Part shown: one piece after another, positions 1,834 to 58,860 of the stretch
Numbering within the stretch: position 1 is the stretch's first letter
Layout of the letters: the number at the start of each line of letters is the position of its first letter
IMG/VR virus record: IMGVR_UViG_3300045988_111499
Span: 1-58,860 of that record
DNA: 58,860 bases
Source: a virus
Strand: one strand, 5' to 3'
Notes under the pieces: generated by a model
What the model saw: the letters and a program-made list of their open reading frames with translations, nothing else
Told to the model about the DNA's origin: nothing
The model's database searches: none
Made by a program: the position numbers and the translations under genes

Positions 1834-2379
1834 TTACATATTGCCGTTGCAAGTTCCACAGCCTGTGTTGCAGATAACTCTCTGCGGTACTACCGTCTGA
1901 GTTATTGCATTCACGGCAGCGGTTACGGAATCAACCTGTCCTTTAAGAGTAGTAATGCCAGTGGTGGTAGTTGCATTGATAACAGCCTGTTCAGTCCACT
2001 TTGCATTCTGTGTTTCTCTAAGGTCTTTAATCTGTCCGTCAGTCCACTTGTAAAGGTCAAGAATCTTCGCGTCCGTAGACTGTTCTGCTTTGAGCTGAGC
2101 TATCTCCATATCCTTTGAGTAATTCTCACGGATGAGGTTTATCTCGCAGGATGTGACTTTTCTGTCCGCTTCAAGCTGTCCGCTGTTGGAAGCAGAATTC
2201 ACAAGCGCGGGAATAGCAGCCATAGCGGCGATTGTGGCAGTGTCAGACGGTTGTCTGTTGCCCCCGAGAATACCGCCGAGAATGTTTCCTGCGCCGCCGT
2301 TAGCGACAGCAAGTCCGCCGAGAGTTGTTCCGATTATGCCAAGTGCAGTAGTGCCTTTTCCGGCTACCCATTCAGCCAT
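1834..2379 (-). CDS. Protein with Gly-zipper hydrophobic N-terminus, central coiled coil and Cys-rich C-terminal tail (..VICNTGCGTCNGNM)
   Basis: ORF track 1834-2385. ATG 2379 is 9 nt after GGAGG. Its own transcription unit begins after the hairpin at 2440-2492. Confidence 0.6.
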   Translation of the reverse strand: MAEWVAGKGTTALGIIGTTLGGLAVANGGAGNILGGILGGNRQPSDTATIAAMAAIPALVNSASNSGQLEADRKVTSCEINLIRENYSKDMEIAQLKAEQSTDAKILDLYKWTDGQIKDLRETQNAKWTEQAVINATTTTGITTLKGQVDSVTAAVNAITQTVVPQRVICNTGCGTCNGNM

Positions 2380-2439
2380 TTTCAAATACCTCCGAAAATA
2401 TATTTATCACCGAACGTTGCGCACCGCCCGAAGACATAC

Positions 2440-2492
2440 AAAAAAATCTCTCTGTATCTGATACCATTGTACCATCGCAGAGAGATTTTTTC
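2440..2492 (-). terminator. Hairpin ATCTCTCTG / CAGAGAGAT flanked by A and T runs (large 23-nt loop)
   Basis: Read directly. It lies just downstream of the stop at 2510. Confidence 0.45.
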
Positions 2493-2509
2493 TTTCGTTA
2501 TTTTTGCGT

Positions 2510-2767
2510 TTATTTTGCGTTTATTTTGCCTTGTTTTTGCAAGAGACGGACGAGCCGTATCAGTGCCGGTTTGTGCCACTTTGAAACCGTCGAGTAATCG
2601 CGCCCGACAGCATCACACACGTCCTCCAGACACCCGCGCTCCACATAGAGGATTTTGAGCAGCCGTTTGTACTCCGGTCGGAGATTGCACTTGTCGATAG
2701 CCGAGGATATCAATTCCGTATCGTCTATCTCCTGCACCGCGTTTTTCTGCCGCACGTGCTCCGTCAA
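2510..2767 (-). CDS. Small HTH protein, sigma-70 region-4-like (possible late-gene regulator)
   Basis: 85 aa. The segment ..LYVERGCLEDVCDAVGRDYSTVSKWHKPALIRL.. resembles a region-4 HTH. Confidence 0.5.
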   Translation of the reverse strand: MTEHVRQKNAVQEIDDTELISSAIDKCNLRPEYKRLLKILYVERGCLEDVCDAVGRDYSTVSKWHKPALIRLVRLLQKQGKINAK

Positions 2768-2770
2768 TCT

Positions 2771-3040
2771 TTACGCCTCCTTGTCCTCGCTTTCTGCTGA
2801 TTCAATAATGCTTTTCACGCCCTCCGCGTCAATCCGTGCCGCGTCAACTTTGCTCTCGCCGTAGATGTAGCCGATAATTGAGGATATCGCCGTAATCGCA
2901 CCCGCAACCTTGCCCGCAATCTCGCCGTAGTCACTCTCGCCCACGCCAAACGACATTGCCACGCCAATAATGATACCGATGATTGTCACCCACAGTTTTC
3001 TTGATGTCAGCTTCTGTTTCCAGTTGATTTTGTTGTCCAT
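2771..3040 (-). CDS. Holin (Phage_holin_4_1-like)
   Basis: Start refined to ATG 3040 (MDNKINWKQKLTSRKLWVTIIG...) after AAGGAG. Has TM segments and lies in the lysis cluster. Confidence 0.6.
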   Translation of the reverse strand: MDNKINWKQKLTSRKLWVTIIGIIIGVAMSFGVGESDYGEIAGKVAGAITAISSIIGYIYGESKVDAARIDAEGVKSIIESAESEDKEA

Positions 3041-3041
3041 A

Positions 3042-3329
3042 TTATTCTCCTTTTTCATCTTCATAAGTTATTTCTTCCTCTCCGTAATCGGAGCGATATT
3101 CTTGTTTGATTTTTTCACGATTTTCCATTGCTGACTTGATGAGATATCCCACCACGCCGCAGCCCATGGGAGCGCCGATGTATGTCAGCAGTCCGTCAAG
3201 AGATGCCATGTCTGGAGCGATTATCAGCTGCACCACAAGATAGCACATTCCGAAAACCGCACCCACAAACCACAGCTTCACAATTGCGGACAGCGTTCTC
3301 TTTGAGTATTCAACGTCTTTCTTTTTCAT
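3042..3329 (-). CDS. Small membrane protein, holin/antiholin-like
   Basis: 95 aa with two hydrophobic segments, lying between the endolysin and the holin. Confidence 0.5.
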   Translation of the reverse strand: MKKKDVEYSKRTLSAIVKLWFVGAVFGMCYLVVQLIIAPDMASLDGLLTYIGAPMGCGVVGYLIKSAMENREKIKQEYRSDYGEEEITYEDEKGE

Positions 3330-3358
3330 GACTGCGTTAAAACTGCGTTAAATCTGCG

Positions 3359-19817: not shown

Positions 19818-19990
19818 ATCTTGTGCTACAAACAAATGTTGACCCAATTTCTGCCACCCCCTTTTTAAATTCCTACCCAAATTGTAGGAGTTAGGCAAAT
19901 GTCTAAAATAAAGTACACAAATGCCGAATATCACTTTATGTGTCACTTATAGCACATTTTATCCGATTTGTCAAACATTCGTCCATCAAA

Positions 19991-20039
19991 ATTTTGTATT
20001 TTGGCGAACAGCTGTACAAATATTTTGTATTTTGGCGAA
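19991..20039. repeat. Two perfect 18-bp direct repeats ATTTTGTATTTTGGCGAA (19991-20008, 20022-20039)
   Basis: Read directly. They lie upstream of terS on the late-operon side. Confidence 0.85.
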
Positions 20040-20100: not shown

Positions 20101-20330
20101 GAAAAGAACCAAAAGAAAGAATATATGTAATATAGTATATCTATAGACTTAATAGCGGTCTTAATAATATAGTATAAGAGAGAGTATATATAAAAAGAAC
20201 TATAGGAATAACTATATTATAAGATACTATAAATATAGTATATCTATAGTACTATAGTAATACTATAAATATAGATACTATATTATATATTAATACTATA
20301 GTTTTATAATATACGCAAATTCGACTTTTT
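20101..20330. repeat. AT-rich array of TATAGT/ACTATA words with nested longer repeats
   Basis: ATATAGTATATCTATAG at 20130-20146 and 20233-20249. ATACTATAAATATAG at 20224-20238 and 20260-20274. No ORF. Confidence 0.85.
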
Positions 20331-20349: not shown

Positions 20350-20384
20350 GCAAATAAAAAGAGCAGGGATTACTCCCCGCCCTG
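20350..20384 (-). terminator. Terminator overlapping the stop of the RHH gene
   Basis: Stem CAGGG / CCCTG, followed on the minus strand by a T run. Confidence 0.45.
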
Positions 20385-20567
20385 TGAAAAGCCGTCCGCA
20401 CTCATCTGTCGGTCTATCGCCTTAACGATGTAGGCGTTGAGCGATAGTCCGGTCCTCTCAGCCGCCGCCTGGATAATGTCCTTGCGCCCCTTGTACACGC
20501 GCAACATGATAGTGTCGTAAGCTTTTTTGTTGTAGCGGTCTTTCACCTCGCTCGAGGTTTTTCCCAC
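20370..20567 (-). CDS. Ribbon-helix-helix (Arc/CopG-like) DNA-binding protein
   Basis: The segment ..KDRYNKKAYDTIMLRVYKGRKDIIQAAAERTGLSLNAYIVKAI.. shows a beta-alpha-alpha pattern. Start is probably GTG 20567, 8 nt after GGAGG. Confidence 0.65.
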   Translation of the reverse strand: MGKTSSEVKDRYNKKAYDTIMLRVYKGRKDIIQAAAERTGLSLNAYIVKAIDRQMSADGFSQGGE

Positions 20568-20611
20568 GTCTCTCACCTCCCCTCTTTCTCTCCTTATTAT
20601 ATCACATATAT

Positions 20612-24292: not shown

Positions 24293-24314
24293 AGAGCCGA
24301 AAGGCTCTTTTTTA
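24293..24314. terminator. Bidirectional terminator AGAGCC-GAAA-GGCTCT between convergent genes
   Basis: Stem with a GAAA loop, A run upstream and T run downstream. Confidence 0.7.
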
Positions 24315-24782
24315 TTTTGTATCCGTAATGTATTCCGTGTTTTCGTGCCGTATCCATCCTCGGTCAAGGTGCGTGTTGTCGTATATCGTCATTCCGACGA
24401 AAATAGCCGCCATTATCACCGCAATTGCCGCGCAAATGTATTTTTCGACCCGTATACGCAGTATCTGTCTGTCTTTGTCCGCTATAATCCGCTCGGTTTC
24501 CGCCTTTATCCGTTCGATTTCCTGCTGGTGTTCTTTTTTCATTGCTTCTATAACATTGCAAGCACTCTCTTCACCGGGAGGTTCTTCTCGCGTTTCCGTT
24601 TCTTCCTCGGAACATAGCCCCAGTGCTTTTTTGAGCGCGTTTGTCACTTCCACACTCGGAGATTTCACTTCGTTGCTGCAGTACCGATGCACCGTCGAGA
24701 CAGATATTCCCGTTTTGTCCGCCAATTCCTGATAAGTCATACCTTGCTTCCGTCGAGCTTCTTCAATTTCATTCCTTTCCAT
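24312..24782 (-). CDS. XRE-family HTH regulator with C-terminal transmembrane anchor
   Basis: GMTYQELADKTGISVSTVHRYC is the HTH. ICAAIAVIMAAIFVGMTIY is the TM segment. Confidence 0.7.
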   Translation of the reverse strand: MERNEIEEARRKQGMTYQELADKTGISVSTVHRYCSNEVKSPSVEVTNALKKALGLCSEEETETREEPPGEESACNVIEAMKKEHQQEIERIKAETERIIADKDRQILRIRVEKYICAAIAVIMAAIFVGMTIYDNTHLDRGWIRHENTEYITDTK

Positions 24783-27396: not shown

Positions 27397-27467
27397 TGGG
27401 GAATCGCCAAACGGTAAGGCAAGGGACTTTGACTCCCTCATCGCAGGTTCAACTCCTGCTTTCCCAT
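27397..27467 (+). tRNA. tRNA-Gln (anticodon UUG at 27429-27431)
   Basis: Full cloverleaf folded by hand: TGGGGAA/TTTCCCA acceptor, GCC-AAACGGTAA-GGC D-arm, AGGGA-CTTTGAC-TCCCT anticodon arm, GCAGG-TTCAACT-CCTGC T-arm. The 5' half is close to E. coli tRNA-Gln as I recall it. Confidence 0.85.
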
Positions 27468-45732: not shown

Positions 45733-45945
45733 GTGCATATGATAGAGTGCATAGAAACGTGCGAGCATATGCAGAGCGTGTTCCCCGATTATCCGTGTGG
45801 AAGAGAAAACTGTCGTTTCAAAGGAGACAGCGAGAAAGCGAACGCTTGTATATGCACCGTGCAGTGTCCGTTGTTTGACGCATGGTTTTCGGAACACTGG
45901 CACAGAATACAAAAAAACGCACAATACCTGCGCAAAAAGGAATAG
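45733..45945 (+). CDS. Cys-rich small protein
   Basis: 70 aa with 8 Cys. Confidence 0.45.
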   Translation: MHMIECIETCEHMQSVFPDYPCGRENCRFKGDSEKANACICTVQCPLFDAWFSEHWHRIQKNAQYLRKKE

Positions 45946-45951
45946 AGAGAG

Positions 45952-45980
45952 AAGAGCCGATTAGTTTCGGTTCTTTTTCT
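45952..45980 (+). terminator. Rho-independent terminator ending the early operon
   Basis: AAGAGCCGA-TTAGTT-TCGGTTCTT followed by a T run. Confidence 0.7.
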
Positions 45981-46067
45981 ATACATTGCAATATACAAAA
46001 TATTAATGAATTTAGAAATATTTCATAAACTCGCGTCTTTTGAGTGGTGTTTTGTAGTATTTTGGAA

Positions 46068-46096
46068 ACAATTGCTTAATAGTTTTGTGATATAAT
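46068..46096 (+). promoter_or_regulatory. Extended -10 promoter candidate (TGaTATAAT at 46088-46096; weak -35)
   Basis: Read directly in the AT-rich gap before 46137. Confidence 0.4.
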
Positions 46097-46136: not shown

Positions 46137-47594
46137 ATGGCACAACAAAAAAAGTATAACCCCTACGATGATGTAGCGGGAGTAGTCAACATGAAGTCGA
46201 GATACAACCAAGGCAAAGCGACAGGCGACCCGAATTACCGCTCATATAACGAACAGGCAAAGCAGTATTACGATAACCTTGTAAGAAACGGCATGGGAAG
46301 CGTAGCAGATGAGCTTCACGCAGTGGACTACGACCAAGCCGTAGATATCTTAAAGAGATATTCACCCACGCCGGACTATGAGGACTTCTATTCCGACCTC
46401 GCCGCAACAACGATTAATAACGCGCAGAATCCGCAGTCTTCAGATACCGTGAACAGAATACTGAACTCGTTCACCAATACCGATAACCTTCTGAACGGAG
46501 AGATAAAGTACGACAGCAACGGAAATGTTATCGGCGGACTTAACACAGACCACTATAATACCGGCAAGAACCAACTCGACTACCTCAACAACTTCGACGT
46601 AACCAAGCAGAGCTATTACGAGCCGATTATGAGCGAGTATAAACTCAAAGGCTATAACGCCGCGCAGGGTGAATACGCAGACACAGGCGCAACAAACGGC
46701 GGTAATATAGATTCGTACGCGGCAGCTAACGCCAACAGACAGCAGCTCGCTTTCACTAACGCCGGAATGAACGCCGCCCTCGCACAGGCTAATCAGAACC
46801 AAGGCAACTGGCAGGCACTCTACGACAGCATGACGGGACACCTCGGCAATATGGGTACAATAAATTCAAATAACCTCGCGACAGGCGCGAATATCTATGC
46901 AACGGATTCAGCAGAGAGACAGAACGCGGTAAATAACGCAACAGCCCTCGCACAGCAGGAACAGCAGAACAGAATCAATCAGTATGTGACCGACATTGAA
47001 GCCGCTATGAACAAGGAGAACAACAACACCACGCTGAAACAGGCGCAGATGAACTCCGACCTGCAGAGATATATAGCAGAACTTGAAGCAACAACAGGCA
47101 GACAAGCAACGGCAGCAGACCTTGAAGCGGCAAGAATAGCGGCAGAAGCCGACAAGTACGCATCTGACAGAACGCTTGAGGGAACGAAGTACAAAGTAGA
47201 CGCGGATAAAGTAAGCAGTAACGTTAAACAGCTTCTTAAACAGCTCGGCTATACAGTATCAAGCGACGGAACGGTTTCCGAAAGTGCGTCAGGAAGCGAG
47301 GACGGTTCTACAACAGAAGATATTATTACAACGATAATTTACAATATTGAAAACGGAGACGCGCCGGACGGAGTAACAAGTTACGATGAACTGAGAGACT
47401 ACCTTATCAGAAACGGACTTCCCAGAAGTGAGGTTGTCAAGGAAATAAATTATTGGAACAGCGACAAAGGCAAGCCGAATATATTTGATACAGTAAACAT
47501 ACAGGGCAGAACTATTCCGAGGTACAAACTGAATCAATATATGAGCCAGTACGGAATATCAAGCGACGACCCGTCAATCGGCATAAGAAAATAA
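46137..47594 (+). CDS. N/Q/A-rich 485-aa protein, first gene of the giant-ORF unit
   Basis: RBS ACGGAGG. Low-complexity N/Q-rich centre. Likely virion-internal or accessory, which is inference. Confidence 0.65.
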   Translation: MAQQKKYNPYDDVAGVVNMKSRYNQGKATGDPNYRSYNEQAKQYYDNLVRNGMGSVADELHAVDYDQAVDILKRYSPTPDYEDFYSDLAATTINNAQNPQSSDTVNRILNSFTNTDNLLNGEIKYDSNGNVIGGLNTDHYNTGKNQLDYLNNFDVTKQSYYEPIMSEYKLKGYNAAQGEYADTGATNGGNIDSYAAANANRQQLAFTNAGMNAALAQANQNQGNWQALYDSMTGHLGNMGTINSNNLATGANIYATDSAERQNAVNNATALAQQEQQNRINQYVTDIEAAMNKENNNTTLKQAQMNSDLQRYIAELEATTGRQATAADLEAARIAAEADKYASDRTLEGTKYKVDADKVSSNVKQLLKQLGYTVSSDGTVSESASGSEDGSTTEDIITTIIYNIENGDAPDGVTSYDELRDYLIRNGLPRSEVVKEINYWNSDKGKPNIFDTVNIQGRTIPRYKLNQYMSQYGISSDDPSIGIRK

Positions 47595-47611: not shown

Positions 47612-50600
47612 ATGGCGACAAAGAAATATAAGAACTCAGAACTCGGAGAACTCGGCAAATATCTTGAGGAAAGTTCTAAGAAGAAAGAAACTGACAGCAG
47701 CAATGCATCAAGCGCATTGTCAAACTCTTCTTCGGTGCAAAGATACGACAATCTCGGCGAAAGTCTGAATAACTATTTACAAAAATCAAGCGGTGTAATC
47801 AGAAAAAACGACTATGTAAATGCGCTCAATGCGCAGAGAAAGGCTATAGGTGCGGCAGTAAAGTCAGCCGTGAATTCCGCTACTTCTTCAAGACTTCCAT
47901 CGGAAATAAGCGATGCGGAAAGAGAAGCCATTGCCGAAACAACAAAGATAGCAAGGTTCAAGGAATCCGAAAGAGAGGAAGCCGCAAAAAGAGCGAAACT
48001 CAACTGGAAAAGACAGACTTCACCTGTGGTGAACGACTTAAACGATGTTACTGATGCGATAGACTATGTTTACAAGTCACAGCACAATGCAGGCATACAA
48101 GGATGGGAAGACATGGTGGGCGGCATAAACGCCATAGGCGCAGGTGTTTTAGGGGGCGTGAAACAGCTCACCAGTGCAATTAGCGGAGACGAGACAGCAC
48201 AAAAAGCAGTGTTAAACGATACTGCCGGTGCGTGGAGTGACGCGTTTAAAAAATCGTATGCGGATTATGTTAACAAAAACTCTTCAGAGGATGCAAGCGC
48301 GGCGGCACAGTATGAAATAGAACGAACTCACCCAAAGCAGGCTGAAAAGGGAAAATATTCTGTTACTCAAATAGCAAAGAACGTTACAAGCAACGCGGCA
48401 AGAATGGCTCCGCAGATTGCTATGTCAGCCGCTACGGGTAAGTTGGCTGGTGATTTAGCCGGTCGAATAGTAGGTGCTACATTGCTCGGCGCGCAGTCCT
48501 CGGTCGGCTCATACCGCGAAGCCAAGGAGGAGGGTGCAAGCGACAGACAGGCAGCGGACTTCGCCGGTCTTGAATTTCTGAACCAAGGCTTTGGTGATAT
48601 TGTGATTGGCGGTATAGGTGGCGCGACGTTCGGTTTGCTCGACAAACCAATGTCAGTGCTTGCCGGAGCAATCACTAAAACTCCAATCGCCAAAACAATC
48701 ATTCAGGCGAGCGGCAATATAGCCGGAGAAGGATTGGAGGAAACCGGGCAGAACTACCTGACTACGCTTAACAAGCGATTGACGTATAAACCCGACGATG
48801 AGTTTGATGTTGATTCAGCGGTATATGAGGGTGTTCTCGGAGGCATCAATGCCGCAATTCTCGGCACTCCCAAAACGTACAGCCAGTACAAAGTCAACCG
48901 CGCCGCGTATGATACCGTCAACAGTCTTTCCACAGCGGCAAGCAGAGTCAGCTCGGAGCAGGACGCAAAAGTCATTTCCGATATGGCAGACCAAATATCA
49001 AAAGGTGCTGATGAAGTCATAGCAGATTCCAAAACAGAAACAGCCGACAAAGCAAACGCCGAATATATAAAGCGCGGTGTAGAAGAGGTAAAGAAAAAGC
49101 TGAACGAGAACTCCGCAAACATCGTAAAAAACAATCAGTCTGTTTTGGAGAAAACACAGGAAATAATCAGAACGCATAAGACAAGCGATGCAGAATCTCT
49201 CTCGGAACTTGTCAATGCAGTCAAAGAATCCGGATATGGCGGAAACAGTAATAACGCCGTAAACAATACCGTCGACTATGTAAACGAACTCATAATAGAA
49301 CAGAATCAAGTGGCAAAAACAGCTGAAAGTATTGCTTCTATGCAGGACGGTCAGATATCGGAAGACGCGCAGACAGCGGCAGTTCAAAAACAAAAAGCCA
49401 ACGAAGCACTTGAATACACAAACACTGTAATTCCGCAACTCAAGAGTATCAGCGAAAACCTACGTTCCAAAAGAAGCGAGATTAACGCCCGTCTCAAGCT
49501 CGACGAAAATACAGAAACAGCGGCAACTCAAGATGTAAAGCAGGAAGTCAATACTCAAACTACAGCCACAGATACATCGGCGAATGCGACAGCCGAAGCT
49601 CAGCAAACCCAAACAAATACCACAGAGCGCGTCAGCAACAGCGCATACCATTCAGAAACCGCAGAGAATATCCGTAGCACTTACGAAGGCAGGAACATAA
49701 AGGAGACAGCAGAGAACATTATCAAGGCTCACGGCAATGTCAGAAGTGCTGTAGACTATGTCCATGATGTTTACGCAAAAAGCGGAGGTTCTAATGCAGA
49801 CGCGTCTACAAAAGAATATATCCGCGCACTTGATAGTGAAATCAGAAAAGCAAACAAACCTCTTCTCGAAAAGAACATAAAGAGAATAGAAACGCTTCTC
49901 AAAGAGTACGGTGTAAAGAATGTTGAAATAGACGAAAGCATTACTCCGTTGACGGATGACGGTAAATCCGTGTGGGGAATGGCTCATTATAACCGTGGCA
50001 CAGGAAGGATATATGTTTCTCCCTACGCAGACGGCAAGGCAATAATCGGCTCTAAAATCGTCCATGAATTTACCCACCATGCAGCAAAAGCCGACAATTC
50101 TCTTGTGGGTGACATTCTAAAAGCCGCAAGAGAATCAAAAGTCTTCAACAAGGAAATAAAGCTTGCTGATGGAACAACCACAACCACCGTCGACAATCTC
50201 ACGCGCCTTGTGAAAGAAAACTACGCCGATGAGATAAACGAATACATTGCAACCTCAACAAACCTCTCGCGCTACAAGGTGCTTGTCGGAATGGGCAAAT
50301 CAGAAGCAGATGCCGCCAGAATTGTTGCAGATGAGTTCAAAGCGTCTCATGCGGAAGAATACAACAGCATAGTTGACGAATACGTAAATGAAGATACTGC
50401 GGCTTATGTTATGGAATTTCTCAATCAAGAAAAAAACGAGGACATTCTGTCTCAGCTGATTAAAGACAATCGCCCTCTTTGGAAGCGTATTCTTGACAAG
50501 ATTGAAGATTTCATTGCAAAGATAACCGGCAAAACCGAAGCAAGAGAATATCAGAAAGCCGCCGACAAAATAAGAGAAATTCTCGGAAACGAAATCGACG

Positions 50601-53600
50601 CAAAGGTAGAAAACACAGGCTCTTTCAAGGCTATTCAGCAACAGATTAAAAACGGCAACTCCAAAATAGGAAACACTCCCGATGGAAGAAAGTTCTCTAT
50701 GGAGCTGAATGTAGATGAATCCAACGGACTTTTCGCAATTCACAATCTCACAGCAGACAGTTTCATGAAATCATATGAACTCGGTGGATTTGCTATGCCG
50801 TCTATTGCAATTGCAAGAAGCGATGTGGGTCATTCCAATTTCGGAGATATCTCTCTTGTATTCGCTTCCGATACAATCAACCCCGCAAACCCGGACAACA
50901 AGGTTTATTCGGCTGATGCATGGACACCGACATTCCCCAAGATAGAATACGAAGCAAACAGCAAAGTCACAGATAAACTGCGCGACAAATATTATGAGCT
51001 TTACGGAAAGTTCGGTCATGAAAAAATCTCCGCTTTATATCCTTACGGAAATTACTTTGAAGAGCAGCTCAATACAGACGGCGGTGTTGACGGTATAATC
51101 TCAAAGCAAAGCAACAATCCGCAGATGATGCAGGTTTATCTTGCCGACACACAAGGAAAAACTGTTGATTCTGTTGTCAAAGAAACAAAAACTACACTTC
51201 CGTCAGAACAGGTAGAACAGTCTGAATTCATTATTGATAAGCTCGGTGCAGATACTGTAAATGAAATGCGTCCGCAAGCCAATGAATCTCCCATAAGCGC
51301 ACGCAAGAGATGGATGAGCGAACACGGAGATGCTTTCAAAGCCGCATACACCGATTATTTGATGCAGTCGGGACTTACCTCAGAAGAAGCACAAAACGCG
51401 ATAGACAATATGACTAAAGCGCAGTTGTTATCTCAGATGGTTAAAGCACGTAATTACCTTGCGAATGGTGCTGAAACTGTAAAATCAGAAGTAGATACAG
51501 AAGCTACCAACAACGCTATTAAAGAAGCTGTAAATCAAGAGGATTACTTGAAATGGCTTCACAGCCTTTTTGACGGCGGCGAAAAAAAGTCAGGCGTTCC
51601 AAACGGCAAAGAACCGTATACACGCAACGGCAATCAACGCCCTTTCTCTGCAACACATTATCCCGTCACGCTTGATAATATAGTTCTCTCGATGAAGTCA
51701 CAAGGAGACGGCAACACCAAAAACGCAACGTCAGTATTTGTCGGCTCAAAGACAATCCGTGCGGAAAGCGCAGCAGAGTACAGTTCTCTCGATGAAATAA
51801 GAGCCGATAAAGGCAGACTTGCTCATAGAACCCCGGAAGAAGCAAAAGCTGCATGGGATGAGTTTGATAACCGTTTGTCCGCTATCATAAACAGAATAAT
51901 GGATGCGGAGAGCGGAATCGACAACCGTTTCATCGAGCAGGACAGAATAGGCTCTGTTCTCGCGGAAGCTTCAAGGAACAATACCGAAGCCAACATAAAA
52001 AAAGTCCTTACTCAATATAAGCTCACTCCGACAGTAGCAGCAGATTTCAAGGCACTTGTAGACGATATCAAGTCCGCGCCGGTTGACATCTTTGAAGCAA
52101 AGCCAGAAAGAGTGGTAGGGCTTGACGAAGTAAAGTATGCCATAGTTCCGTCAGACATAAACTCCGACGTTACAACAGCACTGAATAACGCCGGAATAGA
52201 AACCAAAACATACGAAAACGGCAACGAAGCGGACAGGCTGAAAGTTCTGAACACGCTATCCGACGTAAGATTCTCGAAGCAGCTTGACACAGACACCTCT
52301 TCCAAAATAACGCAAGCCGACGTAGAACAGCTCCGTTCAATCGGAAGAAAAAGCATATTCGAATTTACATCAGAGGATATTCAGAAGTCCGAAAAATGGG
52401 CGAAAAAGTTCTACTCAGAACTCGGCACAAAGTCTCCGTTCTTCCGTGCATGGTTCGGTGACTGGCGTGAGAATGATACTGGGACATACAAAGCCGTCAA
52501 AGCAAGTGGCAGCTCTTATAGCGGTGCCGGGCGGGCGCATAATACAGATATGGGCAGGGACATTTCATGGGGGAGTTCTTTAACAAGAGAAACCCAAAAC
52601 CACGCTGTTAAATCCAAAATTGCCGTGTCTGCATTAGGCGATATTCAGAGTGTAGTAGAAAACTCTATATACTTAGACACAAACATTTCTGAAAAGTCAA
52701 GCAATACTAAAATGCAGAACACAGCTTTCATGCATAGTTTGTATACAGTTTATGAGAGCAACGGACAAAAATACTTGCTTAAACTCTTTGTGGAAGAAGC
52801 ACTTCCAAATAAAGGCGGAGAACCGTTCTCAAGAGCATATGAATTAAAAGATATAGAAAAAATAGCCGATTTATCTGGCGGTGTTCTCTCACAAAAAGGA
52901 GGCTTAACCGAGGATAAATCGACTACCAGTATCAGTATATCCGATTTGTACGCACTTGTCAAGGGCTACGACAAAGATTTTAAGTCTCAACCGTCAAGCA
53001 AAGTCGTGAACACAGACGGCACGCCTAAAGTTGTATATCACGGAACAACGGCAAACTTCACTGAATTCAAACCAAGCAACGGCGCACTCGGAAAAGGAAT
53101 ATATTTCACGGATTCCAAAGACTTCGCGAAAGGCTATACATACCAAAACGGAGTGGCGGTCGGAAACGTCATGGAATGCTATCTCGATATAAAGAATCCG
53201 TACATAGTGAAATATGCCGATAACTACGATACAGATGCATTGAGAGAAAAAGGTTACGACGGAATATTGCACGAAGCAACCGGAATGTACGTAGCATTCG
53301 ACCCGACGCAAATAAAGTCTGTTGACAACATCGGGACATTCGACAAAGGCAAAGGCGACATACGCTACTCCAAAGAGCTAATGACGGCAGAGGAAAAGAA
53401 GAAAGTCCGCCAAGCAGAAAGAGCGGCATATCTTGAAAGACAGCTCGTCTCAACCGCACCGCTCGGAGGAAAGGCAAAAGCCGTTTCTCCGACAGCAAAA
53501 GCCGCAGTAGCAAAGAAAATAGCGTCAGGTATGCCCGGCGTATCGACAGCTCAGGTAAACGAACAGCTCACAAAGTTCTTTGAGGTTATCGAACACCCAA

Positions 53601-56600
53601 AGGCAACAACACCCGCCGCATACAGAGATGAAGTCCGTCAAATGGCAAATGTCACGGCTCAGAACCTCTACAACGAGTTCCGCATAGAAAACACAAACCC
53701 GCTGTATGATGAGTTCAACGATGCATATAACCACATCAAGAGCCTTAAATTCAAGATGACCGACGCTGTAAAAGACGACTTCGGCAAAGAAGCATACAGT
53801 GACTTCTACAAGAGAGCAAGAGGAACATTAAAGCTCCGCGTTAACGACGGTATGGCAGTAGACGAGCTGTGGGGCGAACTGTGCAACCTCTATCCTTACT
53901 TTTTCAACGAAAGCACCACAAACCCAAGAGAGATGATGGAGCAGATATACGAGGTTCAGTCTTCGCTAAAGAAAACTCCCGGACATCCGTATTACGACAT
54001 GAGTTCTGAAAACACAGACATATTTTCAGAAGGTGAAGACACCGCAACAGTAAACTCTATAGCGGACGCTCTTGTAGCAGCATACCTTGAAAACGCCAAG
54101 CCTACAGTTGCGGCAGAAAACAAATCACTGCGGAACGAAAACAAACGCCTTGCAGAAGAAGCCAACGCAGCAAGGGGAGAAGCCGCCGACGCAAAAACCA
54201 CGCTTAAAGTAACTATGGACTGGAATCAAGCCGAACTGACTAAAATGTACGGAGATTTCACGCGCCAAATCAGCGAAGAACAAAAGCAGCTGCAACAAGC
54301 AAACAGAAAAATCGAACGCTTGACAAACAAGGTGGAAAGAAAAAATGTAAACATGGCTCAAAAGACAGCTCTCAAGGAAATAGGCAGGTTGCATGAGATG
54401 TTTACAAATCCCACTAAGCAGAAGCACATTCCGCAGAATCTCAGAGCGGCAGTCGGCAGTTACCTCACATCTTTGAACAACACAAAGCTCTTGAACGGCA
54501 AAACCGTAAATTCTCAAGAAATAACTGAAATACTACAATCAGAGCGTGAGAAAATAAACAATGAAGCCGCCAAGGTCATCAACACTTTGTCAGGCAAATT
54601 CACAACTGATTCGGAACTGTATCAGGGTAGGTCAACAAGGCAGATAGAAGCACTGAAATTTGAACTTGACAAATTAACCGAGCTTGCTAACGAAAGCCCA
54701 AACAGCGGAATTGATTCTTCTAATAATGCCGATTATATCAGAACTGTCACAGACCTTACAAGAATGGTGAACTACCTCGTCAAGCAGTCAAATGACTTCT
54801 TCACGGGAACAAGGAAAGTCGAAGCCGAAACCTTTGCGAAGAGCTGGATTGACGAACTTTCCGGTCACAAAACACGTATCGGTGAGACCGGATTTGAGCG
54901 AAGCCAGTTCAAAAAGCTGCTTGACGGAGTAGGCTACAGTTTCATGTCAGCGGACTTGTTCTTCTCGACGATGGGAGAACCCGGCAAGGAAATATCAAGC
55001 TGGTACAGAAACGCTCAAACGCGTCAGGTGAAGATGAAGCAGGAGTACGGAGAGTATATGTCCGAGCTTCTGGGAGACAATTACAGCACCATCTCCGGAA
55101 GCACACAGGCGAAAAAGAACCTGATTGATGTGAAGATTCATGGCAACGACGTAAAAGTATCGAAAAATCAGCTCATGTCATTGTATCTCACATGGAAGAG
55201 AGCGGCAGGTCGCAGACACCTTGAAAACGGCGGAGCGGCATTCACAAACGCAAACAACGAGACAAGCAAAGTTTACGTTATCGACGAAGCAACATATAAC
55301 ACACTCATGGAAAAGCTGACAGCAGACGACAAGAGAATAGCAGACGGCATAGGAAAGTTCTTATCGGAAAACTGTTCGGAATGGGGCAATGAAGCTTCAA
55401 TGCAGCTCTACGGAATCAGGCTTTATGAAGACAGCAACTACTTCCCGATTCGCACACCAAGCGAACTGCGAGACACAAACTTCTCAAACCTCGCAGATAC
55501 GCATACCATAGAGAACTCATCGTTCACCCACAAGCTCAACAAAAACGCTAACGCCGCCGTAGTCATTGGAGACGTGTTCGATATAGCAGACAGGCACGTA
55601 AACGATATGTCAGCTTATTCAGCATATGCGCCGCTCAACAACAGCATGGAAAGAGCCTTCAACGCCAACGGATTAAAGCGTGCGCTAAGTTCAGCATACG
55701 GTAACAATGGCGTAAAGTATATGCAGGACTTCATCGACAAAATTAACGGAAACGAACCAAAGCGCACCACAGGAGAGAACGCAAACAAGGTTCTCAATTT
55801 CATCTCCAACAATGCGAAGAAAGCGGCAGTTTCGGCTAACATTTCGACAGCATTGAAGCAGCCGTTGTCTCTCGTAAGGTCGTGGCTTGTCATAGACCCC
55901 AAATACACCCTCGCCGCGTATGCCCAAATAAGACCAGGCGTAAACAACATAGTTAAGCAAAGCAAGGAATACAACAGAATCCTGAACACCATGAACGAAT
56001 ACTCCGGTATTGCCGTGATTAAGTCACTGGGATATTCGGACACGGGAATAGGAACTACCACACGAGAAACCTATGACGAGCAAAGTCTCAAATCTGCTTA
56101 TAATAAAGCCAAATATATTAAGCAGTCAGCCGAAGACATTGCAATGAGACCCGCCGAATTTGCGGATGAAATCACATGGGTGCGTATGTGGAAAGCGTGT
56201 GAACTTGAAGCTAAGGCAAAATACGGCAATACATTGTCTACCGATGAATTTAACAGACACGTCGCAAACAAGTTCAATGAGATTATCGGCAAGACACAGG
56301 TTGTCGATTCGATTCTCGACACTGCACCGATAAGCACCAATAGGTTTTTCAAGACGCTGTACCCGTTCATGAACGAACCTGTAAAGACCGCAGCAACACT
56401 CATCTCAGCGGCGGAAAACGTCAGAAACGGCAAAGCAGGAGCGAAAAAACAATTAACAAACGCTATCGGCTGCTATGTTATCTCGAACTTGTTACTTGAG
56501 CCTATAGTCTCATCTCTCATCGGTATGTGGAGACACGATTCGCCCAAAGACCCCGAAGACTTCGCAAAGAAATTTTTGGAAAGATTTATAGGCATTAAAG

Positions 56601-57664
56601 CCGACGGCGAAACAAAATGGACGGACATATTCTCTTCTAACGTCGCTGACGGTTTATTTGCAGTCCCGTATATCGCTCAAATTTATGATACAATCGCAAA
56701 CAAGTTTAACAATTTTGACCCAGAGCGAATGGATTTACAACCAGTAGCCGACTTAGTAGGAAACGGTATGTACTTTTTCAACAGTCTTTCCAAAGAAGAC
56801 TATGAAAACCAAAAAACAAAGGCGAACTACGCCACCGACATGATAGCTTCATTGGCACAGATTCTCGGCATCCCCGGTTCTACTCTTAAAAGAGATTTGT
56901 CAGCTATAGCAAGAACAGCTGTAGACGCAACAGGGGCTTATGTGGCACAGTGGGAACTCAACAAAGTTTACTACAACCTCGGTAACGTAACCGCAAGAAC
57001 GAACAAGAACTTCTATGACATCATGGCGAAAGCGTACAATGCCGGAGACACAGAAGCCTATTCGTATATGCTGAGAGACCTTCGTTCCATTCAGACAGGT
57101 GCAAAAGCGTTCGGTGTGCCGTACAACAACATTAATAAGTACATCACCGAGCACGGCGCGAAGATAGTAGAAGGCACGGATATGTGGTATGTGTCACTGC
57201 AAGCGGAATACGACCTGAACACTTTCGTTCCGAATATGAAAGTTGAAAAACTTGTAACAAGTGTTTACCAAAAAGCAAAGAATGAGAAACTCGACAATTA
57301 CGAAAACGCAATCTACAAAGCTCCCACAACGAAAGCAAACGCTACGTTCAGTGTGAATAAAGAAGATTACGAAATGACACTTGAAGAATTCGACAACTAC
57401 ATCAGAAACACAGGAGACTTTGCTTACAAGATTACAAACGCACTTCCGTCAAATTACAAGTGGTCAAGTCTGAACACAGCACAGCAGCTCTACGCGCTTG
57501 AGAAGACATACGAATTCTCGAAGGCGTATTGGAAGAAAAAGCTCAAACCCGAATATTCTTCTAAGTCAAATTGGATGGATGAGCTTTGCGACAACAAGGT
57601 CGACTTCCAAACTTACGCACGCGTCATAATCAATCAAGCGAAAAAATACTCGCCAAAGGATTAA
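47612..57664 (+). CDS. Giant 3,350-aa multi-domain protein (polyvalent-protein-like): Gly-zipper hydrophobic N-region, zincin HEFTHH, ART-like H-Y-E module, long uncharacterised C-terminal half
   Basis: Single uninterrupted ORF. HEFTHH at 50063-50080. VVYHGT (His 53039-53041), GIYFT (Tyr 53102-53104), GILHE (Glu 53273-53275). Confidence 0.9.
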   Translation: MATKKYKNSELGELGKYLEESSKKKETDSSNASSALSNSSSVQRYDNLGESLNNYLQKSSGVIRKNDYVNALNAQRKAIGAAVKSAVNSATSSRLPSEISDAEREAIAETTKIARFKESEREEAAKRAKLNWKRQTSPVVNDLNDVTDAIDYVYKSQHNAGIQGWEDMVGGINAIGAGVLGGVKQLTSAISGDETAQKAVLNDTAGAWSDAFKKSYADYVNKNSSEDASAAAQYEIERTHPKQAEKGKYSVTQIAKNVTSNAARMAPQIAMSAATGKLAGDLAGRIVGATLLGAQSSVGSYREAKEEGASDRQAADFAGLEFLNQGFGDIVIGGIGGATFGLLDKPMSVLAGAITKTPIAKTIIQASGNIAGEGLEETGQNYLTTLNKRLTYKPDDEFDVDSAVYEGVLGGINAAILGTPKTYSQYKVNRAAYDTVNSLSTAASRVSSEQDAKVISDMADQISKGADEVIADSKTETADKANAEYIKRGVEEVKKKLNENSANIVKNNQSVLEKTQEIIRTHKTSDAESLSELVNAVKESGYGGNSNNAVNNTVDYVNELIIEQNQVAKTAESIASMQDGQISEDAQTAAVQKQKANEALEYTNTVIPQLKSISENLRSKRSEINARLKLDENTETAATQDVKQEVNTQTTATDTSANATAEAQQTQTNTTERVSNSAYHSETAENIRSTYEGRNIKETAENIIKAHGNVRSAVDYVHDVYAKSGGSNADASTKEYIRALDSEIRKANKPLLEKNIKRIETLLKEYGVKNVEIDESITPLTDDGKSVWGMAHYNRGTGRIYVSPYADGKAIIGSKIVHEFTHHAAKADNSLVGDILKAARESKVFNKEIKLADGTTTTTVDNLTRLVKENYADEINEYIATSTNLSRYKVLVGMGKSEADAARIVADEFKASHAEEYNSIVDEYVNEDTAAYVMEFLNQEKNEDILSQLIKDNRPLWKRILDKIEDFIAKITGKTEAREYQKAADKIREILGNEIDAKVENTGSFKAIQQQIKNGNSKIGNTPDGRKFSMELNVDESNGLFAIHNLTADSFMKSYELGGFAMPSIAIARSDVGHSNFGDISLVFASDTINPANPDNKVYSADAWTPTFPKIEYEANSKVTDKLRDKYYELYGKFGHEKISALYPYGNYFEEQLNTDGGVDGIISKQSNNPQMMQVYLADTQGKTVDSVVKETKTTLPSEQVEQSEFIIDKLGADTVNEMRPQANESPISARKRWMSEHGDAFKAAYTDYLMQSGLTSEEAQNAIDNMTKAQLLSQMVKARNYLANGAETVKSEVDTEATNNAIKEAVNQEDYLKWLHSLFDGGEKKSGVPNGKEPYTRNGNQRPFSATHYPVTLDNIVLSMKSQGDGNTKNATSVFVGSKTIRAESAAEYSSLDEIRADKGRLAHRTPEEAKAAWDEFDNRLSAIINRIMDAESGIDNRFIEQDRIGSVLAEASRNNTEANIKKVLTQYKLTPTVAADFKALVDDIKSAPVDIFEAKPERVVGLDEVKYAIVPSDINSDVTTALNNAGIETKTYENGNEADRLKVLNTLSDVRFSKQLDTDTSSKITQADVEQLRSIGRKSIFEFTSEDIQKSEKWAKKFYSELGTKSPFFRAWFGDWRENDTGTYKAVKASGSSYSGAGRAHNTDMGRDISWGSSLTRETQNHAVKSKIAVSALGDIQSVVENSIYLDTNISEKSSNTKMQNTAFMHSLYTVYESNGQKYLLKLFVEEALPNKGGEPFSRAYELKDIEKIADLSGGVLSQKGGLTEDKSTTSISISDLYALVKGYDKDFKSQPSSKVVNTDGTPKVVYHGTTANFTEFKPSNGALGKGIYFTDSKDFAKGYTYQNGVAVGNVMECYLDIKNPYIVKYADNYDTDALREKGYDGILHEATGMYVAFDPTQIKSVDNIGTFDKGKGDIRYSKELMTAEEKKKVRQAERAAYLERQLVSTAPLGGKAKAVSPTAKAAVAKKIASGMPGVSTAQVNEQLTKFFEVIEHPKATTPAAYRDEVRQMANVTAQNLYNEFRIENTNPLYDEFNDAYNHIKSLKFKMTDAVKDDFGKEAYSDFYKRARGTLKLRVNDGMAVDELWGELCNLYPYFFNESTTNPREMMEQIYEVQSSLKKTPGHPYYDMSSENTDIFSEGEDTATVNSIADALVAAYLENAKPTVAAENKSLRNENKRLAEEANAARGEAADAKTTLKVTMDWNQAELTKMYGDFTRQISEEQKQLQQANRKIERLTNKVERKNVNMAQKTALKEIGRLHEMFTNPTKQKHIPQNLRAAVGSYLTSLNNTKLLNGKTVNSQEITEILQSEREKINNEAAKVINTLSGKFTTDSELYQGRSTRQIEALKFELDKLTELANESPNSGIDSSNNADYIRTVTDLTRMVNYLVKQSNDFFTGTRKVEAETFAKSWIDELSGHKTRIGETGFERSQFKKLLDGVGYSFMSADLFFSTMGEPGKEISSWYRNAQTRQVKMKQEYGEYMSELLGDNYSTISGSTQAKKNLIDVKIHGNDVKVSKNQLMSLYLTWKRAAGRRHLENGGAAFTNANNETSKVYVIDEATYNTLMEKLTADDKRIADGIGKFLSENCSEWGNEASMQLYGIRLYEDSNYFPIRTPSELRDTNFSNLADTHTIENSSFTHKLNKNANAAVVIGDVFDIADRHVNDMSAYSAYAPLNNSMERAFNANGLKRALSSAYGNNGVKYMQDFIDKINGNEPKRTTGENANKVLNFISNNAKKAAVSANISTALKQPLSLVRSWLVIDPKYTLAAYAQIRPGVNNIVKQSKEYNRILNTMNEYSGIAVIKSLGYSDTGIGTTTRETYDEQSLKSAYNKAKYIKQSAEDIAMRPAEFADEITWVRMWKACELEAKAKYGNTLSTDEFNRHVANKFNEIIGKTQVVDSILDTAPISTNRFFKTLYPFMNEPVKTAATLISAAENVRNGKAGAKKQLTNAIGCYVISNLLLEPIVSSLIGMWRHDSPKDPEDFAKKFLERFIGIKADGETKWTDIFSSNVADGLFAVPYIAQIYDTIANKFNNFDPERMDLQPVADLVGNGMYFFNSLSKEDYENQKTKANYATDMIASLAQILGIPGSTLKRDLSAIARTAVDATGAYVAQWELNKVYYNLGNVTARTNKNFYDIMAKAYNAGDTEAYSYMLRDLRSIQTGAKAFGVPYNNINKYITEHGAKIVEGTDMWYVSLQAEYDLNTFVPNMKVEKLVTSVYQKAKNEKLDNYENAIYKAPTTKANATFSVNKEDYEMTLEEFDNYIRNTGDFAYKITNALPSNYKWSSLNTAQQLYALEKTYEFSKAYWKKKLKPEYSSKSNWMDELCDNKVDFQTYARVIINQAKKYSPKD

Positions 57665-57683
57665 TAACACCTCCAAACAGAAA

Positions 57684-57716
57684 AAGGCAGTCGATGAAAT
57701 ACTCGATTGCCTTTTC
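57684..57716 (+). terminator. Rho-independent terminator after the giant ORF
   Basis: AAGGCAGTCGA-TGAAATAC-TCGATTGCCTT followed by TTCT. Confidence 0.7.
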
Positions 57717-57821
57717 TAATATTTTTATTGTTTTCGGCACGAAGCTGTTGTATTTTCCAGTTGCCGGTGATATAATAGCTTTGACTGTATGGGTGAAACA
57801 AAAATCGAAAGGAATAAAATC

Positions 57822-58860
57822 ATGGCAACACCCAAGAAAACAAAAAACGGATGGACAATTCTCGTTTATGCCGGGATAGACGAGAACGGAAAGAAGAGGT
57901 ATCAAAGACTAAGCGCACCGACAAGAAAAGAAGTGGAAAAGCTTGCGTCGGAATTCGACAAAGAAATGGACGGACACAGCGCGTCGAACATCACAATGAC
58001 CGTAGGAGACGCTGTAGACGCGTATATAGCCGCAAGAGAGACAGCAGGATATTCACCCAAGACAATACGCGAATACAAGGCATACAGGCGCACAGCACTT
58101 CAAGGATTGGTTGACATTAAGCTTTACTCCGTGACAGACGAGATGATTCAAAAGGAGATAAACAAAGCCGCTGTCGGTCACTCGCCGAAGTCTGTCTCTT
58201 TGTGGTGGGGACTGTTCGGAGCGGCAATACGCCAGTACAGAAAAGGATATGCCCCATCTGTGCTGTTGCCAAGCGTGAAGCGAAAACCCGTAGAAGTGCC
58301 GGACGAAACGACAATAAAGAAAATGTTCGCGGAGCTGAAAGGAGACCCGCGCGAAGTCCCGATTATACTCGCTTCCGTGTGCGGTATGAGAAGAGGGGAA
58401 ATATCCGCACTGGATTTAAAAAATGATATCGACTATCAAAAAGGACTTGTGTATGTAAACAAGGCATATACAAGAAACGAGAACAACATATTTGAACTCA
58501 AAGAACCGAAAACCGAAGCGGGAAAAAGAGTTATATCAATTCCGCAGTGGGCGGCAGAAAGACTTTATGTTTACTCAAACAAACATAATTTCAAAATGTA
58601 CAACCCCAATCAGATAACACAAATGTACGCCCACGTAAGAAAAAAGTATAACCTCACCTGTACCTTCCACGGTTTGAGACATTACTACGCGTCAATCATG
58701 CTTGCCCTCGGAGTACCAGATAAGTACGCAATGGAAAGAATGGGACACAGCACAAATTCAATGCTCAAGCATTACCAAGAATCGGTAAAAGAAAAAGATA
58801 TTGAAATCAATAACGCAATGAATGACTACTTCTCTCGATTAGATGAGACAACAAAAAAGA
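57822..58860 (+). CDS. int: Tyrosine recombinase / phage integrase (runs off the window end and continues at 1-130)
   Basis: ATG 57822 follows GAAAGGA. Not in the ORF track because there is no stop before the window end. Motifs seen: AGKRVISIP (Arg), HGLRHYYAS (H-x-x-R), MGHSTNSMLKHY (His...Tyr). Confidence 0.85.
   Translation, partial: MATPKKTKNGWTILVYAGIDENGKKRYQRLSAPTRKEVEKLASEFDKEMDGHSASNITMTVGDAVDAYIAARETAGYSPKTIREYKAYRRTALQGLVDIKLYSVTDEMIQKEINKAAVGHSPKSVSLWWGLFGAAIRQYRKGYAPSVLLPSVKRKPVEVPDETTIKKMFAELKGDPREVPIILASVCGMRRGEISALDLKNDIDYQKGLVYVNKAYTRNENNIFELKEPKTEAGKRVISIPQWAAERLYVYSNKHNFKMYNPNQITQMYAHVRKKYNLTCTFHGLRHYYASIMLALGVPDKYAMERMGHSTNSMLKHYQESVKEKDIEINNAMNDYFSRLDETTKK
58742..58860 (+). 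repeat. Terminal overlap copy 2 (identical to 1-119)
   Basis: Direct comparison of window ends. Confidence 0.95.

Follow-up and report, generated by a model that had tools for sequence, protein, structure and literature searches.

The stretch of DNA analysed here, referred to as the window (58,860 nucleotides, nt; the whole of IMG/VR virus record IMGVR_UViG_3300045988_111499), includes one gene encoding a giant protein of 3,350 amino acids (aa). The protein is, with near certainty, a member of the phage polyvalent class described by Iyer et al. in 2017. It holds at least two unrelated effector or enzymatic domains, PBECR5 and ART-PolyVal (ART, ADP-ribosyltransferase), plus an LPD3 domain and a region with an HExxH motif. 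The picture that emerges from sequence comparison is of a family made of a constant carrier with variable enzymatic cargo. By analogy with gp50 of phage N4 and gp47 of phage phi24B, the giant is probably a capsid-packaged ejection/effector protein delivered with the DNA.

An earlier note on this DNA, made from the letters without database searches, had described the gene as an uninterrupted open reading frame (ORF) of 3,350 codons covering about 17% of the genome, preceded by a 485-aa ORF rich in Asn and Gln (the partner). Both ORFs were found as described.

Domains of the giant protein

The polyvalent-type assignment, already made in the earlier note, is upheld by three families that score above their Pfam cut-offs: PF18814 (PBECR5; 184.5 bits, cut-off 25), PF18760 (ART-PolyVal; 69.9 bits, cut-off 31.2) and PF18798 (LPD3; the cut-off of 27 is passed with 28.2 bits by the whole protein and with 34.8 bits by its segment alone). 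All three were established on polyvalent proteins of phages and conjugative elements (PMC5512222); the kind of protein is therefore already known. Profile searches, which the earlier note had named as the test of its reading, returned ribonuclease (RNase) and ART families and thus bear that reading out.

In PBECR5, the His of the 'A.HNL' motif (H1044) is conserved in the consensus sequences of diverse giants. The segment that follows (aa 1292-1550) has no match in Pfam; it aligns jointly with PBECR5 in distant homologues (query 1027-1575, 29-41% identity).

The ART fold had been recognized before from VVYHGT, GIYFT and GILHE. These three motifs are present and the fold family is right, but the triad is H-Y-D, not H-Y-E. 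The residues that the family alignment conserves are H1810 (YHGT), Y1831 (GIYFT) and D1883 (GYDGI); the Glu of GILHE varies freely. The clade is defined by a His on strand 1, a Tyr on strand 2 and an Asp on strand 5 (PMC5512222). Judged by its residues, the ART of the window belongs to this H-Y-D clade (ART-PolyVal / Tox-ART-HYD2). It is of the short form, without the helical insert present in relatives.

The HEFTHH motif previously read as a zincin is found at aa 818-823 (nt 50063-50080). None of H818, E819 and H822 varies among 21 diverse homologues, and E927 hardly does. In the AlphaFold (AF2) model, the HExxH lies in a helix after a small beta-sheet (predicted local distance difference test, pLDDT, 70-95), a topology compatible with a zincin. 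This N-terminal model gave no Foldseek match in PDB at E<=0.001; it is too helical and of too low confidence for a zincin domain to be isolated from it. The signature 'AxY..tI.vSP..HExxH' gives weak hits in giants of phi24B, F116 and the Caulobacter phage RapA. The zincin identity of the region is likely but not demonstrated.

The hydrophobic Gly-zipper segments proposed earlier fall in a conserved Gly-rich region, in which G280, E373, G374, E377 and G410 are invariant in the family alignment and E373 and E377 remain so across the 21 diverse giants. The conserved N-terminal region, which comprises the Gly-rich segment and the HExxH, has about 1,000 aa; this region, the HExxH and the start of PBECR5 are also conserved in distant giants. 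The giant protein matches no NCBIfam family; a search of PDB sequences with the protein and with a full-length family profile gave nothing meaningful.

Exchange of modules in a single slot

BLAST comparison with close relatives shows that aa 1-1560 and 1916-3350 keep 80-98% identity and that the stretch between them is replaced. The breakpoints are at query positions 1559-1575 (left) and 1916-1918 (right). The resulting cassette slot corresponds to residues 1559-1923; in the window protein, it holds LPD3 and the short H-Y-D ART. When the slot was anchored on its flanks in 100 close relatives, 13 cassette types of 201-748 aa were found.

The cassettes are strings of smaller modules, each ending with R[YF]SK[EQ]L. 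These modules include an LPD3-like module, MuF_C (itself a PBECR domain), short and long ARTs, GNAT, a second LPD3-like module (module B), a module of unrecognised type (module D) and a weakly methyltransferase-like module with DIGGGRFD. PBECR5 is missing as an entire module from one relative (P0099), in which the flanks of the deletion meet close to the positions of junction motifs 1 and 2. The giant protein is built as beads on a string, whose modules are swapped, added and deleted at the junctions by close relatives. A comparable mosaic turnover of domains is described for Helicobacter jhp1044 (PMC5512222). Such fast combinatorial turnover of enzymatic cassettes among near-identical phages points to selection arising from conflict, not to a structural role.

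The conserved junction by which modules are joined has the form R[YF]S[KM][EQ]L. The junction motif has three copies in the giant ORF and none elsewhere in the six-frame translation of the window. The corresponding DNA copies share just 13-16 of 24 bases; it is therefore the peptide that is conserved, and not a DNA recombination site. A looser form of the motif is about 3-fold enriched in 148 distant representatives (1.77 versus 0.61 per protein); across the same representatives, the motif does not lie at a fixed distance from the C-terminal module.

The C-terminal module

When 1.84 billion cluster representatives (clusters at 50% identity) were searched exhaustively with HMMER, 3,175 clusters were found to match aa 2000-3199, of which 2,315 at E<=1e-30. 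The match is nearly always located at the C-terminal end of proteins of 2,000-4,500 aa; a few stand-alone modules of about 1,350-1,490 aa also exist. A profile search of a 5.8-billion-protein set with one family alignment gave 19 proteins only, owing to the word index of that search.

The AlphaFold model of the module is all-helical (pLDDT 75; predicted template modelling score, pTM, 0.65). The module has no match in Pfam or among PDB sequences. With Foldseek, the model has no match in PDB at E<=0.001 (best E 0.12) and 102 matches in BFVD (viral predicted structures) at the same threshold. The top BFVD matches listed are C-terminal pieces of large phage proteins. The matched proteins are named after the effector that they carry: nuclease, PolyVal ART, crystallin-motif lysin, N-acetyltransferase or type I restriction enzyme. 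A fold match to a protein of Tenacibaculum phage Gundel is weak (template modelling score, TM, 0.21), and the 'structural protein' label of that protein is bioinformatic, not proteomic.

The Pfam content of 13 diverse giants sharing the module is as follows: ART in seven, PBECR5 in six and PBECR3 in two, together with C5 DNA methylase, parts of SNF2 helicase, GNAT, MuF_C and LPD3. The earlier note had counted about 2,500 residues without a nameable motif and had expected new domains. These residues indeed have no counterpart in Pfam or PDB, but they are not orphan sequence: they are conserved modules common to thousands of phage proteins.

The two-gene unit and its context in relatives

The partner ORF matches only phrog_5158 (unknown function) and nothing in Pfam or NCBIfam. 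It is homologous to a 418-aa ORF on contig L004 (phmmer E 7e-91) and to a 555-aa ORF on contig L006 (2e-88), each located directly upstream of a homologue of the giant gene; in the close relative L013, its counterpart has 473 aa. The two-gene unit is therefore conserved.

The unit of the window is on the + strand, with the integrase gene after it; the virion and lysis genes are on the opposite strand. This layout agrees with the one described before, and the statement that the unit stands apart from the virion module holds for this genome. It does not hold as a property of the gene. On L004, the genes for the portal and the capsid, the one in the scaffold position and four further virion genes each have a one-to-one counterpart in the window (E 1e-24 to 1e-183), and the partner and giant genes are co-directional inside this podovirus virion module, between the tail-body and fibre genes. 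In T7-like phages, this slot is where the genes of the internal core/ejection proteins are found. In a more distant, apparently transposable phage (L001), the giant gene lies between the capsid/fibre genes and a CHAP lysin gene; the gene upstream of it (502 aa) has no detectable relationship with the 485-aa partner. The position beside int/attP is therefore a lineage-specific relocation and not a property of the gene. The int-adjacent arrangement is kept in the close family.

The distant relative of the giant in this phage (P0106) is found on contigs L001-L003, together with genes for an rve-type DDE transposase and a reverse transcriptase. In three samples, the host genes on either side of the phage differ from one sample to the next, making three sets in all, which suggests that it is transposable; it is possibly also diversity-generating.

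The unit has its own expression signals. The two terminators that the earlier note had placed on either side of it were recovered as hairpins with T runs (z -5.5 and -6.8); none of 200 shuffled sequences was as stable as the upstream hairpin. The TGnTATAAT element is also where it had been placed; the promoter scan found no -35 match. In the window, TGNTATAAT has 12 occurrences where 1.7 would be expected (about seven-fold), mostly between genes. This enrichment suggests extended -10 promoters of the host sigma-A type and gives a hint of a Gram-positive host. Another motif, ATACAAAAT, has five occurrences in the window against 0.67 expected by chance; two copies precede the late operon and one precedes the giant unit, each oriented with the downstream genes. 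It could be a site for a shared regulator, a weak hint of co-regulation of the giant unit with the late operon.

Proposed role and alternative explanations

According to the mechanism proposed here, the giant and its partner would be late products that enter the capsid during packaging and leave it, along with the DNA, by way of the short tail; several enzymes would reach the new host at once. The conserved end regions would constitute a packaging and translocation chassis, by analogy with N4 gp50, and the 485-aa partner would be a co-ejected protein. The predicted PBECR5 RNase and the H-Y-D ART would then act on host RNA and protein, either blunting defence or taking over the host. Delivery with the DNA is favoured, through context and analogy, by the placement in the virion module of L004, by the virion proteomics of phi24B and by the three-part plan of N4 gp50. 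As Iyer et al. suggest that metallopeptidases (MPTases) process polyvalent proteins (PMC5512222), the zincin-like domain may, purely conjecturally, cut the string at the junction motifs.

A broader proposal is advanced tentatively, and is rather doubtful in its entirety. The N-terminal region and the C-terminal module would be an uncharacterised delivery chassis for injected effectors, present in about 3,200 clusters. The R[YF]SK[EQ]L junctions would be release sites, cut after injection by the zincin or by a head protease. The family would be a phage counterpart of polymorphic toxin systems, a single slot shuffling RNase, ART, acetyltransferase, methyltransferase-like and other modules.

Several results weigh against packaging and delivery, or against parts of the mechanism. 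Direct evidence of presence in virions is lacking for the window giant and for all of its detectable homologues. The end modules and the partner have no detectable homology with phi24B gp47 and its partner beyond the short HExxH signature. The chassis has no detectable homology, by hidden Markov model (HMM) comparison, with N4 gp50 and gp51 or with p59 and p60 of F116, nor with gp50 by hhalign; the parallel is an analogy only. The HExxH region, conserved as its motif is, matches no peptidase profile (including MPTase-PolyVal and the others in Pfam), no PDB sequence and no fold with Foldseek. The Gly-rich segments (aa 168-186 and 325-343) are weakly hydrophobic (Kyte-Doolittle about 1.1-1.2) with pLDDT of 30-50 in the AF2 model; they are not convincing as transmembrane helices. 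A unit with its own host-type promoter and terminators beside int/attP has the usual layout of lysogenic-conversion cargo. A scan of genome contigs for a host gave one metagenome-assembled genome (MAG), whose matching locus has neither a tRNA nor a clear junction.

The layout of lysogenic-conversion cargo is what would be expected if the giant were not packaged at all and acted as an intracellular multi-enzyme factor, expressed from its own promoter in the prophage or early in infection and involved in superinfection exclusion, abortive infection or anti-defence. Its own extended -10 promoter, the strong bracketing terminators, a location next to the integrase gene and on the other strand from the virion genes, which the close family retains, and a toxin-like RNase and an ART that could serve exclusion all agree with such a factor. 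It is nevertheless unlikely: in relatives the gene pair is embedded co-directionally in the virion module, the giant of phi24B also lies beside int yet is found in virions, and the motif upstream of the unit is common to the late operon. About 2,400 aa of conserved non-enzymatic chassis would moreover be hard to explain in a cytoplasmic enzyme.

The L004 slot, where T7-like phages have their core proteins, would also suit a structural ejection or conduit protein bridging the envelope (a counterpart of T7 gp15/gp16, or tape-measure-like), whose enzyme-like modules would be accessory, inactive or devoted to envelope penetration. The chassis consists of long conserved regions that are helical and include Gly-rich and hydrophobic helices (e.g. 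aa 2952-2970, Kyte-Doolittle 1.65); some cassettes include no recognisable enzyme, the C-terminal module also exists by itself (about 1,400 aa), and a conduit role is what the phi24B authors propose for gp47. That the protein is essentially a conduit is judged quite improbable, as the ART catalytic residues, the PBECR5 His and the HExxH are conserved in distant relatives, the enzymatic cassettes turn over rapidly between near-identical phages and no fold similarity to solved ejection proteins was found. The unannotated residues could finally hide a virion RNA polymerase like that of N4, or some other machine for early transcription or replication, given the size and three-part proportions shared with N4 gp50 and the fusion of ART-PolyVal, in some crAss-like phages, to giants annotated as RNA-polymerase subunits. 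This is extremely unlikely, and an N4-like polymerase is effectively refuted: no polymerase family was found (Pfam, PHROGs, NCBIfam), HMM and hhalign comparisons with gp50 were negative, the C-terminal module has no PDB fold match, and the many host-type TGnTATAAT promoters indicate that the host polymerase is probably used from the start. A capsid-packaged effector carrier is the preferred reading.

Polyvalent proteins were predicted computationally in 2017; almost none has been studied experimentally, and the detection of such a giant in virions was reported only in a 2026 preprint (phi24B). In the searches made, neither the size and ubiquity of the C-terminal module nor a single slot with at least 13 natural variants in near-isogenic phages, the junction peptide or the conserved partner gene was found to have been described. 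Phages that are 96-98% identical in the carrier regions and differ only in the effector beads of the slot are a clean natural experiment, and effects of a single module on host range or anti-defence could be read out directly from the cassette variants. If the C-terminal module is a packaging or translocation device, it would explain how proteins of about 370 kDa pass from short-tailed phages into cells, and a large block of phage proteins now named after the enzyme that they carry could be better annotated.

Genome organization

The window is a circularly closed phage genome of about 58.74 kb: bases 1-120 are repeated at 58742-58860 (120-nt end overlap), and the integrase gene spans the circular junction. 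The large terminase subunit (TerL), the portal, the major capsid protein, a fibre protein and an M23+NAGPA lysin were identified with PHROGs and Pfam; no tape-measure gene was found among the window proteins with these two databases. The portal is of P22 type and scores over the Pfam cut-off; SU10-type portal, capsid and adaptor models also match window proteins, under their cut-offs. The lysis and virion genes are on the minus strand, from 19946 down to 485. The plus strand encodes RecT, a replication initiator and a single-stranded DNA-binding protein (SSB). From this gene set, with its P22-type portal and no tape measure, the source is a temperate, short-tailed phage. The possibility that the giant is itself a tape-measure protein was rejected: it matches no such family (Pfam, PHROGs), and the P22-type portal and the weaker SU10-type matches correspond to a short tail.

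No DNA-level relative was found among 50,697 phage records, and tblastn of the same records gave single-domain matches only. Identical or almost identical copies of the giant protein are encoded on dozens of metagenomic contigs, each of about 58 kb; one database copy is named 'MAG TPA: nuclease [Caudoviricetes sp.]'. An 84-kb contig with a close relative is a longer-than-unit phage assembly without host flank.

The presumed attP core is a stretch that includes GGTTCGAATCC and resembles the 3' end of a tRNA (about 190-230); a strong hairpin comes next (about 227-267). No partial tRNA was called at this place by ARAGORN or Rfam; the attP assignment is plausible.

Other features of the genome were observed. 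The phage encodes a tRNA-Gln (anticodon TTG) at 27397-27467 (+). In the lysis region, a 183-aa ORF (1834-2385, -) has a strongly Gly-rich, hydrophobic N-terminus (GTTALGIIGTTLGGLAVANGGAGNILGGILGG) and may encode a protein that resembles holins or acts on membranes. Degenerate TACTATAG-like repeats with periods of 19, 36 and 52 make up an AT-rich block at 20189-20311, with the terminase/late operon on one side and a small ribbon-helix-helix-like ORF (20370-20576, -) on the other; an array of regulator sites, a replication origin or a packaging site are possible functions of this block.

Table 1. Features of the giant gene unit and of its surroundings. Positions are those of the window; cells are left empty where no value applies.
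Feature	Position	Strand	Characteristics
Terminator-like hairpin closing the upstream SSB unit	45945..45985	+	-16.6 kcal/mol, z -5.5, then T run
ATATACAAAATATT motif	45991..46004	+	upstream of the two-gene unit; also twice just upstream of the terminase/late operon
Extended -10 element TGATATAAT for the two-gene unit	46088..46096	+	
Partner ORF, 485 aa, N/Q-rich	46137..47594	+	directly upstream of the giant gene
Giant polyvalent protein ORF	47612..57664	+	uninterrupted, 10,053 nt, 3,350 aa, 17.1% of the genome (end overlap removed)
Conserved Gly-rich N-terminal region with GEGLEE motif	48104..48841 (aa ~165-410)	+	
Zincin-like region	49919..50521 (aa ~770-970)	+	HExxH aa 818-822, nt 50063-50077; candidate third ligand E927
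Junction motif 1, GRKFSMEL	50684..50707 (aa 1025-1032)	+	start of the PBECR5 module
PBECR5 domain, predicted metal-independent BECR-fold endoRNase	50687..51484 (aa 1026-1291)	+	Pfam PF18814, E 3.9e-54
Conserved unannotated part of the PBECR5 module	51485..52261 (aa 1292-1550)	+	BLAST co-alignment
Junction motif 2, DVRFSKQL	52262..52285 (aa 1551-1558)	+	left border of the cassette slot
LPD3 domain	52532..52810 (aa 1641-1733)	+	Pfam PF18798
ART-PolyVal domain	53012..53329 (aa 1801-1906)	+	Pfam PF18760, E 5.1e-19
Junction motif 3, DIRYSKEL	53357..53380 (aa 1916-1923)	+	right border of the cassette slot
All-alpha conserved C-terminal module	53381..57661 (aa 1924-3350)	+	phrog_22978 (unknown function), E 4e-199; proposed packaging/delivery chassis
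Intrinsic terminator after the giant gene	57676..57722	+	-18.6 kcal/mol, z -6.75, T run; 13-bp stem in terminator scan
Integrase promoter element TGATATAAT	57768-57776	+	
Tyrosine integrase	57822..58860, on to base 129 across the junction	+	phrog_1 integrase, E 2e-44
TGNTATAAT, example sites	20596, 20695, 21723, 25145, 27782, 46088, 57768		
ATACAAAAT copies	19988-20032 (-), 45991-46004 (+), 329-373, 24314-24322		

Comparison with known systems

MuF-fused toxins and T4 Alt also place an effector (ART, RNase) on a virion-targeting part and deliver it with the DNA. Some relatives of the window protein carry MuF_C, but the window protein has no MuF (Phage_Mu_F) head-morphogenesis domain. The ART of T4 Alt belongs to the R-S-E clade, whereas that of the window is of the H-Y-D clade and its carrier is far larger.

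In coliphage N4, gp50 comprises three parts: the N-terminal third, which is helical and required for injection, an enzymatic middle, and about 1,400 aa at the C-terminus that are required for encapsidation (PMC5512222; PMC13434306). A 2026 study describes it as a beads-on-string ejection protein, suited to passing the tail channel and expelled with gp51 and gp52 (PMC13434306). The window giant resembles it by its size (about 3,500 aa for gp50), its three-part plan, its beads-on-string organization, an HExxH domain and the location of the gene, which in N4 lies beside the ejection genes gp51/gp52. Unlike gp50, it has no RNA polymerase domain: its cargo is an exchangeable RNase and ART. Unlike N4, the window phage is temperate and probably relies on the host polymerase.

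Two cultured podoviruses encode giants with ART-PolyVal. In the tail region of the Caulobacter Rauchvirus RapA, gp039c (2,039 aa, 'lysis protein'; L010, 4285-10404) shares ART-PolyVal and the HExxH signature with the window giant and gives weak colinear HMM matches to the N-terminal (22 bits) and C-terminal (20 bits) models; it differs by its LPD22 N-terminus and by the absence of PBECR5. With such marginal scores, homology is a lead and not established; gp039c could be an experimentally tractable distant relative. Pseudomonas phage F116 (L011, 978-12339), a temperate podovirus, has two adjacent giants, p59 (2,129 aa, 'methyltransferase') and p60 (1,649 aa, LPD23 and ART-PolyVal), a further polyvalent arrangement. 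Their genes close the virion module; the lysis genes come after them, and the integrase gene is nearby.

The giant of the Stx phage phi24B, gp47 (vb_24B_48, 2,807 aa), is abundant in virions by mass spectrometry and invisible in the reconstruction; its authors propose that it is an encapsidated ejection protein with a conduit role (bioRxiv 10.64898/2026.04.10.717836). Like the window phage, phi24B is a temperate podovirus of about 58 kb in which a gene of about 420-485 aa (421 aa in phi24B) and then the giant gene are the last genes before attP/int. Like the window protein, gp47 is LPD-rich, with a similar HExxH signature; it carries MuF_C, as do some relatives of the window protein. The domains differ (LPD5, LPD1, LPD38 and MuF_C in gp47; PBECR5, LPD3 and ART in the window protein; Pfam). 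The host of phi24B is Gram-negative, whereas there are hints of a Gram-positive host for the window phage.

The closest correspondence is with the polyvalent proteins of Iyer et al. (PMC5512222). No Pfam LPD or MPTase model matches the N-terminal region or the C-terminal module of about 1,430 aa of the window protein, the text of that paper does not mention a linker, and the Pfam models miss the cassette slot and the partner gene. The window giant shares the following with them: unrelated effector domains in one giant polypeptide of a portal-terminase phage (TerL, portal and capsid genes in the window), a late/virion gene context (the unit lies within the virion module in L004 and L001), PBECR5, an H-Y-D ART-PolyVal, LPD3, an HExxH region and mosaic turnover in relatives.

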